Positions 1 through 5,193 of a stretch of 5,193 bases of DNA are shown piece after piece. The position numbers and the translations under genes are program-made. Source of the DNA: Candidatus Iainarchaeum sp. (GTDB lineage Archaea; Iainarchaeota; Iainarchaeia; Iainarchaeales; CSSED10-239); contig JAQVRT010000048.1 of the NCBI GenBank assembly GCA_028700905.1, positions 1 through 5,193 of the forward strand, written 5' to 3'. Under the pieces are notes generated by a model that was not told where the DNA came from, did no database searches, and saw only the letters and a list, made by a program, of their open reading frames with translations. Positions within the stretch are counted from its first letter, which is position 1, and the number at the start of each line of letters is the position of its first letter.

Positions 1-3000
1 TAGTTACTTGTTAAAGTATCATTAAAGTTCTGTAAGATTTTTTGATTTAATTGTTCAGAAGTTTCTGAAAACTTCTTAAGGTTAGAACTGAATACTTGAG
101 GAGAAGATCCAAAGTATACATCCATGTTTGCATAAACTATTGCTTTGTTATCAAAAGAATCATAATTTTTTAAGAAATAATCAACAGTTGTATATTGATA
201 ATCACCAATTTCTACAATATTATTTCCATTAGTAGTTAAACCTTTAGTCTTAATGATTGTTATTTCCTTTAAGTCTGTTGGAACAGCATTTAAAACTCTA
301 TTTGCTTGATCTATATAATCATTTAAAGTTTCTTTATCAGAAACATCAAAGCCATCACAAACACCATTTGCACAAAAATCTACTTTTACTTCTGATTTTT
401 TAATAGTATTATTTTCTTTTTCAAAATAAATACCATTAATATTTATATAATTATCATTTGAAGTAACTTCTTTTAATTTATCTGCTTTCTTTGTTAAGAA
501 ATTATAGAATTGTTCTTGATCACAGAAATAATCTTCACAAGAAGAATCTGTAATATCTTCTGGTAAGTAATCAAATAAGATTTTATTAAATCCATATTCA
601 TTATAGGCATTAGAACCTGTATGTCCAAGATTTGTTGAAAGGTCAGGAGCAAGACAAACTAAAGAATCATCTGTTGTTTGAGAAGGATCAGTTTTTCCAG
701 AGTCACCCTCTTCTTTAGAGCCAACTTCTTTTGTTGACACATCAGCTTTTACACCAATTAAAGTACTACCTTGGTATTTACCTTTATTTGTTGTATCTAA
801 AATTCTCCAAATCTCAAAATTTTGGTTTGTAAGAGAATCTTTACTTGTTTTAAATAAATCTAAGATATTATAATTATCATTTATTGCTAAAATATTATCA
901 AATGATTCAACTGGTCTTTCAAAACATAATTTAAAGATGTTTTTATTTTTAGTAATAAACTCAAGACTTACATCTAATGGATCATATTTTTTATTTAAAT
1001 AATATTTTCCTGGATTTTGTATATATGAAGTTTCTACAATACCATTTATAGGGAAGTCTTTTACATATCCATAGAAACATCTTTTACTTGTAGGATCTTG
1101 ATCAATTTGTGTGAATTTATCTGCAGCAAGTTCTCCTTCTGGAACATTGATAATAACTGCATTGTTATTAGGATCAAGGGTATATGTTAATTTTACAGAA
1201 GTATCAATAAATGAAATTTCTTCATCACTAATAGCTTCATCATCTAATAATTCTTTTAAAAGACCTATATTATCAGGATTATCTAAAATTAACCATTGGA
1301 AATTATCCTTAAGTTCCATACCTATATTATTATAGATAAGTGAAGCTTGTCCTGTTGGTGGTTGAAGTCCAACTTGTAAAGAAAACTTTAAGTTAACTGC
1401 GTCTTCAACATCAATTAATATTTTTCTAAATGAAGAAATAACACCAGCAGCTAAAGAATACTCAGAATATTTATTCATATATTCTTTTACAGACTTAGTA
1501 TTTTCAATTTCAGGATTTCTTCTTAATGCAATTTCCCAAACTTCCATTGGTTCATTTGTTGTTGTATTTGTTAAATAATCAACTTTTATTGGTTGAATTC
1601 TTCCTTGCATATCTCCTACATTTAAGAAAGATACACCATCAAAGTCAAGTGAAATTAAATCAAGATAATTTACTTCAACTATTCTATAACCTTGTGCAAA
1701 GCAAGTATTAATTACTTTTACAAGTTGATAGTTAGGATCAATAATATTTGAAAAATCTAATTTTTGAGGAGTTACTTGTATACAATTTGAAGACATAAAA
1801 CTAATTGGTAATGTTAAAGAAAATAATACATCTCCAATTGTTGAATAGTTTTCATTAGATGCAAGAGATGCCTTAGCATTTACAGGTATTTTAAAAGTAC
1901 CCATAGACTCTCCACCTAAAACACTAATTTCTTCTGTATCTCCAGGCTCTATTGTAAATTCTTTATCTGATGTAACTGTTAAACCATATGTTGAATCAAG
2001 TTTAATATCAACAGCTTCAGAACAATTATTTTTAATATAGAAAGGTCTTGTTGGACAATTCATGTTATTTGTAAAGCCCATGTTTCCATAATTACCTTGA
2101 GGATAACCTGTTAAGAAATTATAACTATCATAATTTCCAAAAGTATTTTGGAATTGTGAGGTAGGGAAATTATAAGGGTTAAATACAGAATTTTGATTTC
2201 CTGTATAATTTGTTTGTCCCACTAAATTATATCTAGGATTATAAATACCTTGTTGTTGTGTAAAATAACCAGGACCTTGTTGATAGTAATTTCTAGAATT
2301 GAATTGGTTATTAGGATTATATGTTGCACTAAAATTATTTCCACCAAAATAAGGATTATTAAAAGCTCCTCCTTGGTTTACTCCACCATAATAATTACCA
2401 TAATTATTAAGACCAGAATACCAATTACATGCAAGAGCAGGAATAGTCTCTCTTGGGATCTCAATACATTCTGAATAATCATTAATAATTGTTTTTAAAG
2501 GAAGTCTTGTTTTAACTTCATCAACACCATTAATATTTCCTTTCTTTGAAGTAAAATAAATTATTGGTGTTTTAACATCTGAAACTATTTTATGTGCTTT
2601 AAACTTTAATTGTAAAGTTGTCTTTGATTTCTTTAAAAGAGTTGATAATATTTCAGTTTCAGTTAAATTCTCTAAAATATATTCTTTTCCAGAAACAACA
2701 ATAGATAAAACTCCAGTTTCAGATTCATTACCCCAATCAACCATTGCATTAATAGTTCCTAAATCAACAGAAACATTCTTTGAAGTACAAGTGTTTTCTA
2801 AAGTGAAATCTAATGTTTTTGTTTCTTGAGATTTAGCTCTAATTGTTCCTTCAAGAGGTAGAACTTTTAAACATTCAAGAGAATCAAGAGAATTTCCTAA
2901 AACTATTCTTACAGTTAATGGAACTGTAATAACCCAAGTTTTATTCATTTCTTCACTTTTAATTTTAATTGCAACTTCTGTATTAATTGTTTGTTGATTA

Positions 3001-5193
3001 TAAAGATTAATACCTTTATCTGTTAATGTTGCTGTTAGAGAAATATCATTTTGAGAAACACCATTTATGATATTTTCTTCAATACCTAAATCAAGATCAA
3101 CAAATTCATTATCAGTAAATACTGATGCAGAAACAATTGTTAAAGGAACATAAGATTCATTATATAAACTAAAATTATAAACTTCTCTTATAGCTTTTGA
3201 AGAATCAATTGTTAAATCAATTTTTTCAGGAATTGTTGTTATTAATTTATCATCAATTACAATTTCTGTTTTAACTGTTTTATAATCATCTTTCTTTACA
3301 ACAATCTTTAAAACATCTCCAAGATCAGTTGCAGGAATTACATGCCCAAATAATCCTTCTTGGTTAGTTGAACCTACAGTTAAACTTCTATCATTAATTG
3401 AAAGTTCAACAATTGCATTTGAAATATAATTATTAGAATCATCAGTTACAACAACTAGTAAATCATTTGAAACAAAAGGAACTATTTTCCTTGGAACAAA
3501 CTCTACAAACATTTCTTTTGCAGGATCAATTTCAAGATATATTTTTTTAGAGAATACAACTTCTCCATTTGAAACTATTGAAAAGTCTAAAACATCAGAA
3601 ACATCATCTATTACTTTAAAAGCAAGTTCTCCAGTTATTAAATCATTTGAAACTAAAGAACCTAAATCAATTCCATCATAATCCTCTCCAACTAAAAGAG
3701 AACCAGTTCCTGAAGTAATAGAATAACCATCTAAATCAACAGAACTACCTGAAGAAATTACAAGCATTGAGTTAGGTGCAATTTTTCCATCTAAAACATT
3801 TAAACTAAATGAAAGTCTATAATTATTATCTAATTTAGCTTTATAACTATCTATTATATTTCTTGATAAATTATTTTGTGTGTTTGTCATAATAAATGCA
3901 TAACACATAAGTGAAGTACATTGATTTTGAGTTCCTAAAAATAATTGAACTTGTTTTGCTTGAGCATATAAATTTTGTTTACTTGTTGAAGAACTATAAG
4001 AAGAATCAACAGGTGATCTTATAATACTTGAACCTTGATAAAACTCTGCTCTATAATTTACAGCTTGGTTTGCAAAAGCTGTATCTAAAACAACAACATC
4101 TGCTTCAATTAAATAACTTCCTTGCATTGGATTATTTAAAGTTAAATTAAACCATTTTGCATTTCTTAAAGTTTTATTTGAATAGTCAATACCTTCTCCA
4201 TTACATGGAGTAAAAGTTAATGAACCGATCTTATCAGATTTTGCAAAACGTACATCTTTTATAAAAATTAAATCTTCTAAAACATTATATGTGTTTGAAG
4301 AACATAAAGGACTTGGAACTTCTCCAGTTCTTATATGTGCAACTGCTTTAGAATATTCTTTTGTAACATTTAATAAATATTTAGCAGTAACTTGCATACC
4401 TGCAGCCACTGAATTTATTTTTTCTCCTTCAGCATTATAAAAACCTAAAAATTCAATACCAGATGTTTGTCCAACAGTTCCTGGAATTGTAAAATTCAAA
4501 GTATTTATTTCGTTTGCATTTGTTGAATACTTTGGAGTTATAAATTTAGAATCTAAATTATCAATAACAAAATAAATTTGTTTATCAGCTCTAATCTTTA
4601 TTATTGTAAAACCATCTTGGTTTGTTGTTGTGGTTTTATCTTGCATTAAAGTATCGTTTGTTGCATCATAAACATATACATTTCCTTGATAGAAATCTCC
4701 ATACTCAGAAACTAAATTAATATTAAAAGTTCCTTCACCTATACTCATCTTTATAGTTTCTTCAGTAATTTCTTGTTCTGAGATTCTAAAAGGATTTGTA
4801 GGATTTGAAGTAAATTGATCTTTAGTTGCATCAAGTCTATATTCTTTACCTAAATCTAAATTTGTGAAAACAGCTTTACCATAAACATCAGCTGTAATTG
4901 TTCTAATAATAATATTTTCAGTATCATCCCATAATCTTATGGTTGCAAAATCAACAGGTTTTGCAAAATCATCAACAACAGTTATAACTAAACTTCTTAA
5001 GTTTTCATTTGTTATTGGAGTTAAGGCAATTTGTTTAATAGATTCACTTATTCTTTGATTATTTTCAGTTCTTATTATATAATTAGGATGATTAAATAAA
5101 ACTTTATAAGAAATATTTTCTTCAACACCAAAAGAAACAACTCCTTCTTTATTTGAATTAATTGTTTTTAAAATATCATTTCCTTTGTATATT
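1..5193 (-). CDS. Internal fragment (5' and 3' ends both outside the window) of a giant (>1,730 aa), probably secreted or cell-surface multidomain protein; hypothetical, no family name assignable
   Basis: I translated the reverse complement by hand in the frame with codons at + positions 3k..3k+2. All 1,730 codons from 5192 down to 3 are open: no in-frame tta, cta or tca triplet occurs on the + strand. The translation starts IYKGNDILKTINSNKEGVVSFGVEE and ends SEQLNQKILQNFNDTLTSN. It is protein-like throughout, with alternating beta-strand patterns and domain-sized periodicity. Codon usage is coherently AT-biased: Arg is almost always AGA (about 32 AGA against 1 AGG and 1 CGT), Leu is mostly TTA, and all 8 Trp are TGG. 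No other frame in the track holds an ORF longer than 74 aa. Confidence 0.9.
3..1500 (-). other. C-terminal-ward region of about 500 aa with unknown fold, apparently mixed alpha/beta, carrying two C-x4-C motifs
   Basis: The peptide runs KSVKEYMNKYSEYSLAAGVISSFRKILIDVEDAVN...QWLILDNPDNIGLLKELLDDEAISDEE...CFYGYVKDFPINGIVE...VCLAPDLSTNLGHTGSNAYNEYGF...CEDYFCDQEQFYNFL...VDFCANGVCDGFDV...SEQLNQKILQNFNDTLTSN. It lacks the regular strand periodicity of the upstream modules. I recognise no family. Confidence 0.3.
663..743 (-). other. Acidic, Ser/Thr/Gly-rich hydrophilic linker, probably disordered
   Basis: The peptide is DVSTKEVGSKEEGDSGKTDPSQTTDDS. It has no hydrophobic core residues. It coincides with the locally most GC-rich line I sampled (661-720, 23 G+C in 60 nt). 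Confidence 0.5.
1510..2057 (-). other. Two further Cys-bracketed Ig-like/beta-sandwich modules
   Basis: The first module is CPTRPFYIKNNCSEAVDIKLDSTYGLTVTSDKEFTIEPGDTEEISVLGGESMGTFKIPVNAKASL...LFSLTLPI. The second is CIQVTPQKLDFSNIIDPNYQLVKVINTCFAQGYRIVEVNYLDLISLDFDGVSFLNVGDMQGRIQPIKVDYL. The run F-x-I-x-P-G-x-x-x-x-I-x-V is typical of Ig-like folds. Fold class is inferred only. Confidence 0.35.
2058..2420 (-). other. 121-aa N/G/Y/Q/F-rich, nearly uncharged low-complexity (prion-like) segment within the CDS
   Basis: The peptide is YSGLNNYGNYYGGVNQGGAFNNPYFGGNNFSATYNPNNQFNSRNYYQQGPGYFTQQQGIYNPRYNLVGQTNYTGNQNSVFNPYNFPTSQFQNTFGNYDSYNFLTGYPQGNYGNMGFTNNMN. My hand count gives N 28, G 18, Y 17, Q 12, F 11, T 8, P 7 and S 6. 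Only 2 R and 1 D are charged, and there is no K or E. The flanking sequence is K/E/D-rich. Confidence 0.85.
2484..2879 (-). other. Ig-like/beta-sandwich module (about 130 aa) containing a Cys pair
   Basis: The peptide is LECLKVLPLEGTIRAKSQETKTLDFTLENTCTSKNVSVDLG...GVLSIVVSGKEYILENL...TTLQLKFKAHKIVSDVKTPIIYFTSKKGNINGVDEVKTRLPLKTII. It is strand-rich, with the pattern L-x-F-x-L-x-N-x-C. Confidence 0.35.
2901..3233 (-). other. Ig-like/beta-sandwich module (about 110 aa)
   Basis: The peptide is IPEKIDLTIDSSKAIREVYNFSLYNESYVPLTIVSASVFTDNEFVDLDLG...ISLTATLTDKGINLY...EVAIKIKSEEMNKTWVITVPLTVRIV. The run F-x-L-x-N-x-S-x-x-P-L-x-I followed by further strands is typical of PapD/ASH/CARDB-like Ig folds. 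The fold class is inferred only. Confidence 0.4.
3255..3461 (-). other. Carboxypeptidase-regulatory-like (CarboxypepD_reg/PEGA-type) beta-sandwich repeat
   Basis: The peptide is LLVVVTDDSNNYISNAIVELSINDRSLTVGSTNQEGLFGHVIPATDLGDVLKIVVKKDDYKTVKTEIVI. It has the same V-V-x-D, I-x-x-A-x-V-x-L, T-x-x-x-G-x-F, G-x-x-L-x-I-x-V-x-K-x-x-Y layout as 4773-5000. The DNA of the two repeats shows no obvious identity. Confidence 0.55.
3805..4484 (-). other. Uncharacterised module of about 225 aa with four Cys, inserted between the beta-sandwich repeats
   Basis: The peptide runs PGTVGQTSGIEFLGFYNAEGEKINSVAAGMQVTAKYLLNV ... PLCSS ... TPCNG ... QNQCTSLMCYAF ... YRLSFSL. I recognise no family motif. The Cys residues fall in two close pairs. 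Confidence 0.3.
4485..4757 (-). other. Third, more divergent beta-sandwich repeat of the same general type
   Basis: The peptide is TIKMSIGEGTFNINLVSEYGDFYQGNVYVYDATNDTLMQDKTTTTNQDGFTIIKIRADKQIYFVIDNLDSKFITPKYSTNANEINTLNFTI. It has alternating hydrophobic strands and a T-x-x-D-G-x-F core, followed by an I-Y-F-V strand. Confidence 0.4.
4773..5000 (-). other. Carboxypeptidase-regulatory-like (CarboxypepD_reg/PEGA-type) beta-sandwich repeat
   Basis: The peptide is LRSLVITVVDDFAKPVDFATIRLWDDTENIIIRTITADVYGKAVFTNLDLGKEYRLDATKDQFTSNPTNPFRISEQ. It fits the classical layout of about 75 aa: V-x-V-x-D-x-x-x-x-P-V-x-x-A-x-I-x-L, then T-x-x-D-x-x-G-x-x-x-F-x-x-L-x-x-G-x-Y-x-L. This is a motif-level call from memory of the family. 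Confidence 0.55.
5041..5192 (-). other. C-terminal part of a carboxypeptidase-regulatory/PEGA-like beta-sandwich repeat (protein-domain annotation within the CDS)
   Basis: The peptide is IYKGNDILKTINSNKEGVVSFGVEENISYKVLFNHPNYIIRTENNQRISES. It shows the pattern T-x-S/D-x-x-G-x-x-x-F, then Y-x-V, then a hydrophobic-Y strand, which is typical of the second half of such repeats. This is recognised by eye only, with no HMM run. Confidence 0.35.

Follow-up and report, generated by a model that had tools for sequence, protein, structure and literature searches.

What does a stretch of archaeal DNA encode when an open reading frame (ORF) lister finds nothing in it longer than 74 amino acids (aa), and one frame of its minus strand contains not a single stop codon? 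This question is raised by positions 1 to 5,193 of contig JAQVRT010000048.1 (assembly GCA_028700905.1) of Candidatus Iainarchaeum sp. The window in what follows means this whole stretch of 5,193 nt, which has a GC content of 26.6% and an even composition along its length. The analysis shows that it is an internal part of one large gene, making up about three-quarters of it, whose product is a giant membrane-anchored protein with a predicted rod of beta-sandwich domains and a head, and that a distal part of the head evolves much faster than the rest. The protein may serve as a surface attachment fibre.

Is the open frame real? In minus-strand frame 1, the 1,730 codons from coordinate 5192 down to 3 include zero TAA, TAG or TGA. 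The five other frames hold 86-273 stops per frame, or ~0.093 per codon. From the base frequencies of the window the stop probability is 0.091 per codon, and 1,730 stop-free codons would arise by chance with a probability of ~10^-72. An earlier reading made from the sequence alone (the sequence-only reading) had stated that all these codons are open and that the window, with no start or stop codon in it, lies wholly inside one large gene. Both statements are borne out. Its figure of 74 aa as the limit of the other frames is right for complete ORFs, but not for stop-to-stop stretches, the longest of which has 89 codons. It also expected that a caller of complete ORFs would miss the gene, and this is what happened with the ORF lister used on the window. 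The output consists of eight short ORFs, and the giant gene was omitted because its ORF runs off both window ends. An ORF lister that drops such ORFs hides giant genes of this kind.

Selection on the frame was estimated by the Nei-Gojobori method. The ratio of nonsynonymous to synonymous substitution (dN/dS) is 0.22 against the reference strain (contig L001; 86.5 synonymous and 73.5 nonsynonymous differences) and 0.15 against a second close contig, L027. Scans of the window for tRNA genes and Rfam families gave zero matches, Tandem Repeats Finder gave just four chance two-copy matches of 12-17 nt, and a BLASTP comparison of the protein with itself gave zero off-diagonal matches at E <= 10. Since the gene has no internal repeats and is present in many assemblies, fragmentation and chimerism are not an issue. 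The worry that a short-read assembly could break the gene up was therefore misplaced, and the gene is intact on contigs of up to 839 kb. A pseudogene, an assembly chimera or a chance open frame has a single point in its favour, that the start and the stop codon both fall outside the window. These explanations are ruled out for all practical purposes by the chance probability and the dN/dS of ~0.2, by the intact gene in many independent assemblies including a curated closed genome, and by orthologues that are full-length in at least 8 of the 21 GTDB loci and occur as fragments on shorter contigs in others. The window gene is a real, working gene under purifying selection except in its distal head.

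How far does the gene extend beyond the window? The place of the window in the gene is as follows.

3..5192, minus strand: internal part of the gene, residues ~359-2088 of 2,322-2,323; 1,730 open codons, colinear with L027 and L001

The window is colinear with L027 21006-26198 at 98.7% nucleotide identity, where the gene encodes 2,322 aa. It aligns end to end with the minus strand of L001 11074-16266 at 96.9% nucleotide identity, where the gene occupies 10001-16972 and encodes 2,323 aa. Outside the window lie 358 N-terminal and about 235 C-terminal residues. The protein had been supposed to exceed its visible part by an unknown and possibly large amount; the near-identical contigs bound it at 2,322-2,323 aa.

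A protein search found 21 relatives, all of 2,222-2,636 aa. The best of them, P0001 (2,323 aa, 96% identity), is 100% identical to CP045477.1 243298-250266, in the closed 839,632-bp genome of Candidatus Forterrea multitransposorum (Iainarchaeota, DPANN). The window gene belongs to a Ca. Forterrea strain (Iainarchaeota/Diapherotrites, DPANN), a sister strain of that of CP045477.1. Nor is the gene hidden, as had been suggested, for it is annotated both in this complete genome and in GenBank (GW835_02520/NCP79419.1, labelled 'hypothetical protein'). The 90% cluster of P0001 comprises 32 contigs, and P0001 has entries in 79 index blocks, with 24 contigs read, drawn from four assembly sources (JGI, NCBI, ENA and Logan). 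Orthologues of the window protein number 13, with 30-96% identity over 77-100% of it. Complete or partial orthologues with 30-64% identity were found in at least 16 GTDB species, whose labels are Iainarchaeum, Diapherotrites or 'archaeon'. Those at 57-64% identity vary in length only from 2,307 to 2,341 aa. In a scan of GTDB species representatives, the window protein had a single match per genome. The gene shares with its orthologue group (L003-L018) a colinear stalk, a linker rich in Asn, Tyr, Gly and Gln (NYGQ), a specific C-terminal head and the third position of an operon.

The 2018 genome report counted five proteins of >1,800 aa, the product of this gene falling in that set, and gave them one sentence and a cartoon as membrane-anchored proteins with a likely role in interaction between cells. 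Its authors inferred a host-dependent lifestyle for Ca. Forterrea. The gene is thus already annotated and published as one for a large membrane-anchored protein.

What does the protein look like? Two tiles, window aa 1-925 (tile A) and aa 1040-1730 (tile B), were modelled with AlphaFold2 on a 22-sequence alignment. The modules are listed below with window residues and, where available, the predicted local distance difference test score (pLDDT).

4482..5192, minus strand: three beta-sandwich stalk domains, aa 1-237, the first cut by the window edge; pLDDT 78-92
3513..4466, minus strand: the family's most conserved module, all-beta, aa 243-560; strands with pLDDT 62-93
2433..3512, minus strand: three to four more beta-sandwiches, aa 561-920; tile A, pLDDT 82-94
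2058..2432, minus strand: low-complexity linker rich in Asn, Tyr, Gly and Gln, aa 921-1045 (125 aa), joining stalk and head; N+Y+G+Q 61%
723..2057, minus strand: proximal head, aa 1046-1490; PapD/ASH-like beta-sandwiches in tile B
618..722, minus strand: disordered acidic spacer rich in Ser, Thr and Lys, aa 1491-1525; pLDDT <50 at tile B residues 453-485
3..617, minus strand: alpha/beta head domain, aa 1526-1730, extending past the window edge; pLDDT 70-91

Tile A (mean pLDDT 85) is essentially all beta with about ten sandwich domains, and tile B (mean pLDDT 72) combines sandwiches with a helix-rich insert, the disordered spacer and the alpha/beta domain. The models indicate with high confidence a stalk of about 13 non-repetitive beta-sandwich domains and a head of ~1,000 aa with paired cysteines. 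At roughly 4 nm for each of about 13 sandwiches, the stalk would measure ~50 nm if extended. The second stalk domain in the window (aa 66-150) is CarboxypepD_reg/prealbumin-like; PF13620 matches aa 70-149 with 27.7 bits, under the cut-off in the window alone, and with 73.9 bits in full-length P0001. The most conserved module, aa 243-560, is marked by three motifs, AHIRTG, KWFN and YRAEF, and by the invariant pair C425-x4-C430; across the 22 sequences R288, G290, K346, W347, R381, R392, P394, Y409, C425 and C430 are invariant columns. It has no Pfam match and no sequence match in the PDB. The stalk that the paralogues have in common ends with the segment aa 561-920, in which C774, C802 and C909 are conserved and aa 575-613 match Big_1 weakly.

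The linker is more variable in sequence than in composition. Its length is 78-137 aa in the closer orthologues with an alignment occupancy of 0.55-0.68, and its N+Y+G+Q content is 61%, against 24% in the protein as a whole. A GC-rich relative, P0014, still has 47%, although the sequence itself is not kept there. The persistence of the composition in such a relative means that it is under selection and not just a consequence of AT bias. The linker has conserved cysteines on either side and could be an elastic or cohesive low-complexity segment. Beyond it, the proximal head has the conserved Cys pairs C1046/C1057 and C1137/C1164, a predicted helix-rich insert at ~aa 1227-1330 (partly of low confidence) and a further beta-rich domain. 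The acidic spacer shows low conservation and occupancy. The alpha/beta domain is marked by the motif G-x-TG...YGF...C-x4-C-D-Q-x-Q-F, in which C1552 and C1557 are invariant and D1558 and Q1561 nearly so.

Comparison with known folds gave only generic likeness. Foldseek, run for both tiles against the PDB and for the head against viral models, returned just sandwich arrays with TM-scores near 0.1: hydin ASH domains, alpha-2-macroglobulin and complement macroglobulin (MG) domains, PrgB Ig domains and PapD-like pilus subunits. For the proximal head the best PDB matches are ASH/PapD-type arrays and pilus subunits (TM-score ~0.1-0.2, again a generic likeness), and for the alpha/beta domain neither structure nor sequence matched anything other than sandwich domains. 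Searched against the PDB, the family profile found scaffoldin X-modules, NOMO2 and transthyretin-like domains only, and the window protein found beta-sandwich modules only. The only Pfam matches were sandwiches of the CarboxypepD_reg, SdrD_B and SpaA types, which pass the threshold in the full protein but fall short of it in the window; NCBIfam scans gave no match. No enzyme, toxin, lectin or phage-fibre tip fold was recognised by Pfam, NCBIfam, PDB or Foldseek searches. The description of the visible part as a hydrophilic chain of beta-sandwich and unknown modules with no recognisable enzyme or toxin is well supported by the domain searches, by the tile models and by Foldseek. As for the families that it had named as candidates, CarboxypepD_reg (PF13620) is present, but Pfam finds neither PEGA nor CARDB in the window protein; an IscA match at E 0.03 is spurious.

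Does the whole protein evolve at one rate? When the window is divided into ten segments, nine show dN/dS of 0.03-0.26 against L001 and 0-0.33 against L027. The remaining one is different.

3..521, minus strand: candidate binding surface, aa 1558-1730; dN/dS 1.02-2.15

Here dN/dS is 1.02 against L001 (23.5 nonsynonymous, 5.5 synonymous) and 2.15 against L027 (9 versus 1), and the difference from the rest of the window is significant (Fisher p = 3.5e-5). A whole-gene comparison of L027 with L029 gave 0.09-0.23 on the N-terminal side of residue ~1,800. Residues 1951-2100 reach 1.28 (29.2 nonsynonymous versus 5.8 synonymous), and residues 2101-2250 reach 1.21 (21 versus 4). The hot spot thus spans ~aa 1950-2250 of the whole gene, and the last ~70 residues are identical between the strains. 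In the paralogue g2671, residues 1951-2100 form a comparable hot spot. Diversifying selection on a surface that binds a partner would produce such a pattern, and the distal head is a candidate for a surface of this kind.

How is the protein held at the cell? The parts outside the window are informative here. A hydrophobic segment near the N-terminus (residues ~13-74; 37-68 in P0001) is strong in every family member examined, and only the most distant member, P0021, adds a second, weak one in mid-protein. It is preceded by a conserved hydrophilic stretch of 40 aa, MGLxSFYxKxEEKYFxFLDxLEKKGINLYKIxDPLEKxGIPTF. The consensus of this motif is Y-x3-E-D-K-[YW]-[YF]-x-[FL]-L-D ... K-G-I-P-V-Y ... D-P-[IL]-[ED]-x2-[GN]-[IV]-P-[ST]-F, with a single transmembrane (TM) helix immediately after it. 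In the full-length gene the motif lies 358 aa upstream of the window; P0001 and the L027 protein start with MGLRSFYFKQEEKYFNFLDRMEKKGINLYKI[IV]DPLEKNGIPTF and the TM helix. The ectodomain then begins with CarboxypepD_reg/Ig-like sandwiches, within a total length of 2,322-2,323 aa. A P0001-type protein has a mass of 261 kDa, a pI of 4.6 and 22 cysteines, mostly in conserved nearby pairs. The C-terminus is hydrophilic, and motif and hydrophobicity checks of P0001 found no LPXTG, PGF/PEF-CTERM, RTX GGxGxD or C-terminal TM helix there. Of the terminal anchors that had been proposed for checking, an N-terminal TM anchor is present and a C-terminal one (LPXTG, PGF-CTERM, TM helix) is not. These features fit a single-pass signal-anchor with the N-terminus inside and a disulfide-stabilised ectodomain outside.

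The motif defines a large superfamily. Among 1.84 billion representative proteins, a profile built from the N-terminal 76 residues matched 1,037 clusters at E <= 1e-3, 505 of them at E <= 1e-10, essentially always at the extreme N-terminus. Among the best 146 matches, 69 are at least 1,500 aa long (median 2,468, maximum 3,046). Short matches mostly look like contig-end fragments, and full-length members are mostly of ~1,500-3,000 aa. In 164 aligned members Y8, E12, D20, Y30, D34 and P42 are conserved at 94-99%. Immediately ahead of the hydrophobic stretch, at -1, 64% of them have Gly and 34% Asn, and 96% have Pro at +2; the paralogues g1867 and g2466 carry other residues at -1. Scans of full-length P0001 and the neighbouring proteins found no Pfam or NCBIfam model that covers the motif. 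It also occurs in mini-proteins of 153-159 aa (L033 9462-9941 and L037 6460-6921, both plus strand), which consist of the motif, the TM helix and one sandwich domain. Because these genuine mini-proteins carry it, the motif is a portable module and not just an attribute of the giants.

With which genes does the giant occur? In Forterrea it stands third in an array with intergenic gaps of 15-130 bp.

Forterrea array, all on the same strand, in order: 2,671-aa giant, 559-aa protein, this gene, 1,867-aa giant, 964-aa signal-peptide protein, 2,466-aa giant
L001/L003 8191-9870, plus strand: pilin-like gene of ~560 aa directly upstream of the window gene, with orthologues in L004-L017

Eleven Iainarchaeota-type loci keep the order of the first five genes, with 30-64% identity and similar sizes (a giant of ~2,650 aa, a pilin-like protein of ~560 aa, this gene, a giant of ~1,600-1,860 aa and a secreted protein of ~965 aa). 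Two paralogues were compared with a hidden Markov model (HMM) of the orthologues: g1867 aligns with profile positions 1-1273 (E 1.5e-88), g2671 with positions 5-1034 (E 2e-30). As the matches are confined to the N-terminal half, anchor and stalk are common to the giants, and the heads differ from one giant to the next. Together with its paralogues the gene fills about 5% of the 0.84-Mb genome, which implies importance to the cell.

The 559-aa protein starts with MLRNKKGFNLFTALISLMLLSITLVF and contains the motif KKGF(N/T)LFTALISL, of which G7, F8, L10, F11, T12 and A13 are invariant in 11 orthologues. Together with a weak match to the minor pilin ComGF (E 0.0085), its sequence marks the N-terminus as type IV pilin-like. 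The large Cys-containing globular part of the protein has no family match. In the 10 kb upstream of the Forterrea array there is nothing comparable to the array of giants. A pair of genes upstream of the operon, for secreted proteins of ~139 and ~450 aa, is duplicated and diverged in one strain (L027 5466-8224 versus L029 6393-8188). The strain with the duplication also has an extra gene of ~257 aa, and the region adjoining the giant cluster is strain-variable.

A second type of neighbourhood is found in Micrarchaeota-type loci, which carry a single giant with the N-terminal motif. The region upstream of the giant is visible in L019/L020, L021, L033 and in part L034. In all visible loci the order is a FlaI/T2SSE-type ATPase, a T2SSF-like platform protein and 'KGQAFT' pilins, then an archaeosortase-family protein, then a 'RGFSLFTPL' pilin-like protein, then the giant. 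The ATPase is matched by PF00437 (E 6e-19 and 1.9e-11) and by the FlaI model (1e-42), and several short 'KGQAFT' pilins are present. The archaeosortase-family protein has 170-190 aa and is matched by PF09721 (E about 1e-9) and TIGR04178 (35-49 bits, cut-off 23).

L019 8417-8989, plus strand; L021 3073-3597, minus strand; L033 7399-7929, plus strand; L034 1733-2242, plus strand: archaeosortase/exosortase-family gene, between the ATPase gene and the pilin-like and giant genes

The giant directly follows the 'RGFSLF' gene in L019, L021 and L037, and in L033 the 159-aa protein with the N-terminal motif separates the two. Pilin-like proteins of the Forterrea-type and Micrarchaeota-type lineages are alike just in their N-terminal 44 residues. 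What could be the substrate of the mini-archaeosortase? No C-terminal tripartite sorting signal was found in the giants or pilin-like proteins beside it, whose C-termini are hydrophilic and Cys-rich with no TM helix. The sole motif-plus-TM element common to its neighbours is the 'GIP[ST]FP' and helix at the N-terminus of the giants, in the opposite topology.

Then what might the giant do? We lean slightly towards a surface attachment fibre of rod-and-head form, linked to type IV filament machinery, with a variable tip that binds a partner, most likely a host. The attachment function taken by itself has about an even chance of being right, and the coupling to type IV filament machinery somewhat less than that. 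In such a scheme the extended stalk would project the head beyond the cell envelope, and the fast-evolving tip would bind a variable partner, most likely the surface of the host cell on which this metabolically minimal archaeon relies. The giants and the pilin-like protein would act together with, or be deployed by, a type IV filament-like machinery, and the cytoplasmic N-terminal motif could be the docking or sorting element that couples them to it. Type IV pili reportedly drive episymbiosis in ultrasmall bacteria of the candidate phyla radiation, which makes the analogy to filament-driven attachment a reasonable one. A bolder version, which we hold only tentatively and rate as rather doubtful, is that the N-terminal motif with its TM helix is a sorting or docking signal for a DPANN-specific surface machine, whose clients would be the >1,000 protein clusters, mostly giant where full-length. 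The machine might consist of the type IV filament ATPase and platform, the pilin-like partner, the mini-archaeosortase and small membrane proteins, and it would deploy ~50-nm fibres whose fast-evolving heads recognise the host. If true, it would be a core host-attachment apparatus of Iainarchaeota and Micrarchaeota.

Several observations weigh against the attachment fibre. Within 10 kb upstream of the first giant of the Forterrea-type operon there is no ATPase, platform or archaeosortase gene. The N-terminus of the giant itself is not a canonical class III signal, given the mixture of Gly (64%) and Asn (34%) at -1 in the 164 members. In the head, no lectin, protease or other fold for binding can be recognised, and N-glycosylation sequons show no enrichment (35, against 35.9 in shuffles). 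The hot spot at aa 1558-1730, with its dN/dS of 1.02 and 2.15, rests on few substitutions in two strain pairs, and relaxed constraint would produce the same signal. Finally, the conserved length (2,307-2,341 aa at 57-64% identity), the strict synteny and the lack of repeats resemble a fixed structural part. The sequence-only reading had taken the architecture for that of giant adhesins and surface fibres. Attachment, as also proposed by the genome authors, remains the most plausible role, but the gene departs from that architecture in having no tandem repeats, no C-terminal anchor, an N-terminal signal-anchor and a tightly conserved length.

One alternative is therefore that the giant does not bind a host but is a structural component of the envelope, either a strut or scaffold of fixed length between membrane and S-layer, or part of a lattice with the 965-aa secreted protein. 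We consider this unlikely, though it deserves serious attention. Besides the conserved length and absence of repeats, it would account for a single match per genome with strict synteny across lineages at 30-64% identity and for the strong purifying selection on the stalk, and the closest solved profile analogues include NOMO2, a beads-on-a-string spacer protein of Ig-like domains. However, the fast-evolving distal tip is not expected of a strut, and the predicted stalk of ~50 nm is twice the 20-25 nm reported for the pseudoperiplasm of Micrarchaeum. The known S-layer protein of Micrarchaeota also differs, being a 101-kDa protein with an S-layer domain (PF05123), while the giant and its 965-aa neighbour match no S-layer family in Pfam or NCBIfam. 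An archaeal S-layer glycoprotein in the ordinary sense is weakened by the same absence of a PF05123/TIGR01564-type family and by the lack of a PGF/PEF motif or C-terminal TM helix. A further proposal, that the giant belongs to the alpha-2-macroglobulin or thioester protease traps, or is some other enzyme-bearing surface protein, draws on the Foldseek matches of the stalk to bacterial and human alpha-2-macroglobulin, CD109 and complement C5 (E ~1e-15 to 1e-16) and on faint Pfam matches to bMG3 and MG4 (bMG3 below cut-off). The TM-score of these matches is just ~0.1, so that only a generic sandwich array is in common. There is no CGEQ or C[GA]EQ, the stalk is all beta without a helical thioester domain, and no Pfam or NCBIfam enzyme domain was found anywhere in the protein. 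With thioester motif and domain both missing, the alpha-2-macroglobulin reading is rejected, and the proposal as a whole is very improbable.

A different alternative concerns the N-terminus. The 40-aa motif might be a long class III leader cut after the conserved Gly, so that the helix would join a type IV filament and the ectodomain of 2,280 aa would be carried on a pilus, at its tip or side, alongside the ~560-aa pilin-like protein. Both the leader and this placement of the ectodomain seem improbable to us. Prepilin peptidase (PibD/FlaK-type) cuts at the cytoplasmic face, which fits a leader on the inside. The sequence 'KKG-IPTF' with ~24 hydrophobic residues resembles the 'KKG-FNLF...' site of the neighbouring pilin-like protein, and the giants are genomically linked to a type IV filament ATPase, a platform protein and pilins. 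When the giant is examined for a class III pilin signal, what is found is a conserved leader of ~40 aa with Gly or Asn at -1 and Pro at +2. Asn at -1 in 34% of the 164 members and other residues in g1867 and g2466 do not suit such a site, and a Pro at +2 conserved at 96% is unusual for the alpha-1 helix of pilins. Moreover, the strong conservation of the leader (Y8, E12, D20, Y30 and D34 at least 94%) suggests a domain that is retained and not a peptide that is discarded. On these sequence features the canonical pilin reading of the giant's N-terminus is disfavoured.

How does the attachment fibre compare with known systems? Giant bacterial Ig-repeat adhesins of the SiiE, LapA and Bap/Ebh type are long acidic extracellular beta-sandwich rods with a distal functional region, and they serve in attachment. 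The giant is like them in being a long acidic, extracellular beta-sandwich rod with a distal functional region and a proposed role in attachment. It differs in having no near-identical tandem repeats, no RTX/type I secretion or LPXTG signal, an N-terminal TM anchor, a conserved rather than variable length and an archaeal origin. The SPEARE proteins of Nanohaloarchaeota, reportedly described by Hamm et al. in 2019, are said to be giant surface proteins of host-dependent DPANN archaea with a proposed role in host interaction, to carry serine-protease, adhesion and restriction-endonuclease domains and to be far larger. The giant likewise is a large surface protein of a host-dependent DPANN archaeon, but Pfam and NCBIfam find no protease or nuclease family in it. 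Long strings of beta-sandwiches are also seen in the MG arrays of alpha-2-macroglobulin and complement, the ASH arrays of hydin and the Ig-like rods of NOMO, which are the best fold and profile matches. The likeness is generic (TM-score about 0.1), and the giant has no thioester domain or motif and a different cellular context.

Type IV pilus loci of system 1 and 4A have been reported in some DPANN (Makarova et al. 2016, PMC4858521; bioRxiv 10.64898/2026.04.22.720090). Like the DUF2341/PilY1-like accessory proteins of the Methanococcus-type 'system 1' (PMC4858521), the giant is a large non-pilin beside pilin-like genes, with the ATPase and platform present in Micrarchaeota-type genomes. Unlike them, it has its own cytoplasmic motif and TM anchor, is several-fold larger and occurs with up to five paralogues. 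Pfam found no DUF2341 or PilY1 beta-propeller domain in P0001, the paralogues or the Micrarchaeota giant. The closest precedent is the 2018 Forterrea report itself, which deals with the same gene in a sister strain, P0001 being in a cluster of proteins of 2,671, 2,323, 1,867 and 2,466 aa. It contains no domain architecture, superfamily of the N-terminal motif, operon conservation, link to filament or archaeosortase genes, or hot spot at the tip. In the literature searched we found no paper on the N-terminal motif or on a link between the giants and type IV filament or archaeosortase genes. As far as that literature shows, the domain map, the motif superfamily, the pairing with a pilin-like protein, the neighbourhood of filament motor and mini-archaeosortase in sister lineages and the tip hot spot are new. 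The giant, a putative fibrous surface attachment protein with an unusual anchor and context, is not a new category.

Why does such a gene matter? DPANN archaea are abundant, mostly uncultured and host-dependent. To our knowledge, it has not been established how Iainarchaeota and Micrarchaeota recognise and hold their hosts. For one of their 'hypothetical proteins' there is now a testable model, a membrane-tethered rod with a variable tip and a conserved set of partners. These are the pilin-like protein and, in sister lineages, also an enzyme of the archaeosortase family and the motor of a type IV filament. In addition, metagenomes can be searched for the entire superfamily by means of the short N-terminal signature.

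The region downstream of the giants is also conserved in ten Micrarchaeota-type loci, where six to nine multi-pass membrane proteins of 80-135 aa are encoded in a run. Members of this run have no Pfam family.

L019 16237-19283, L021 14757-17111, L024 18662-20825 and L026 17376-19089: runs of small-membrane-protein genes, found also in L031, L032, L033, L035, L037 and L038

The run is followed by genes for a protein of ~190 aa on the opposite strand, a protein of ~490 aa and another of ~170 aa, and then by DNA polymerase B. In several loci (L035 24890-26996, L037 20588-24463 and L038 14621-18220) this polymerase carries an intein with a LAGLIDADG homing-endonuclease domain.

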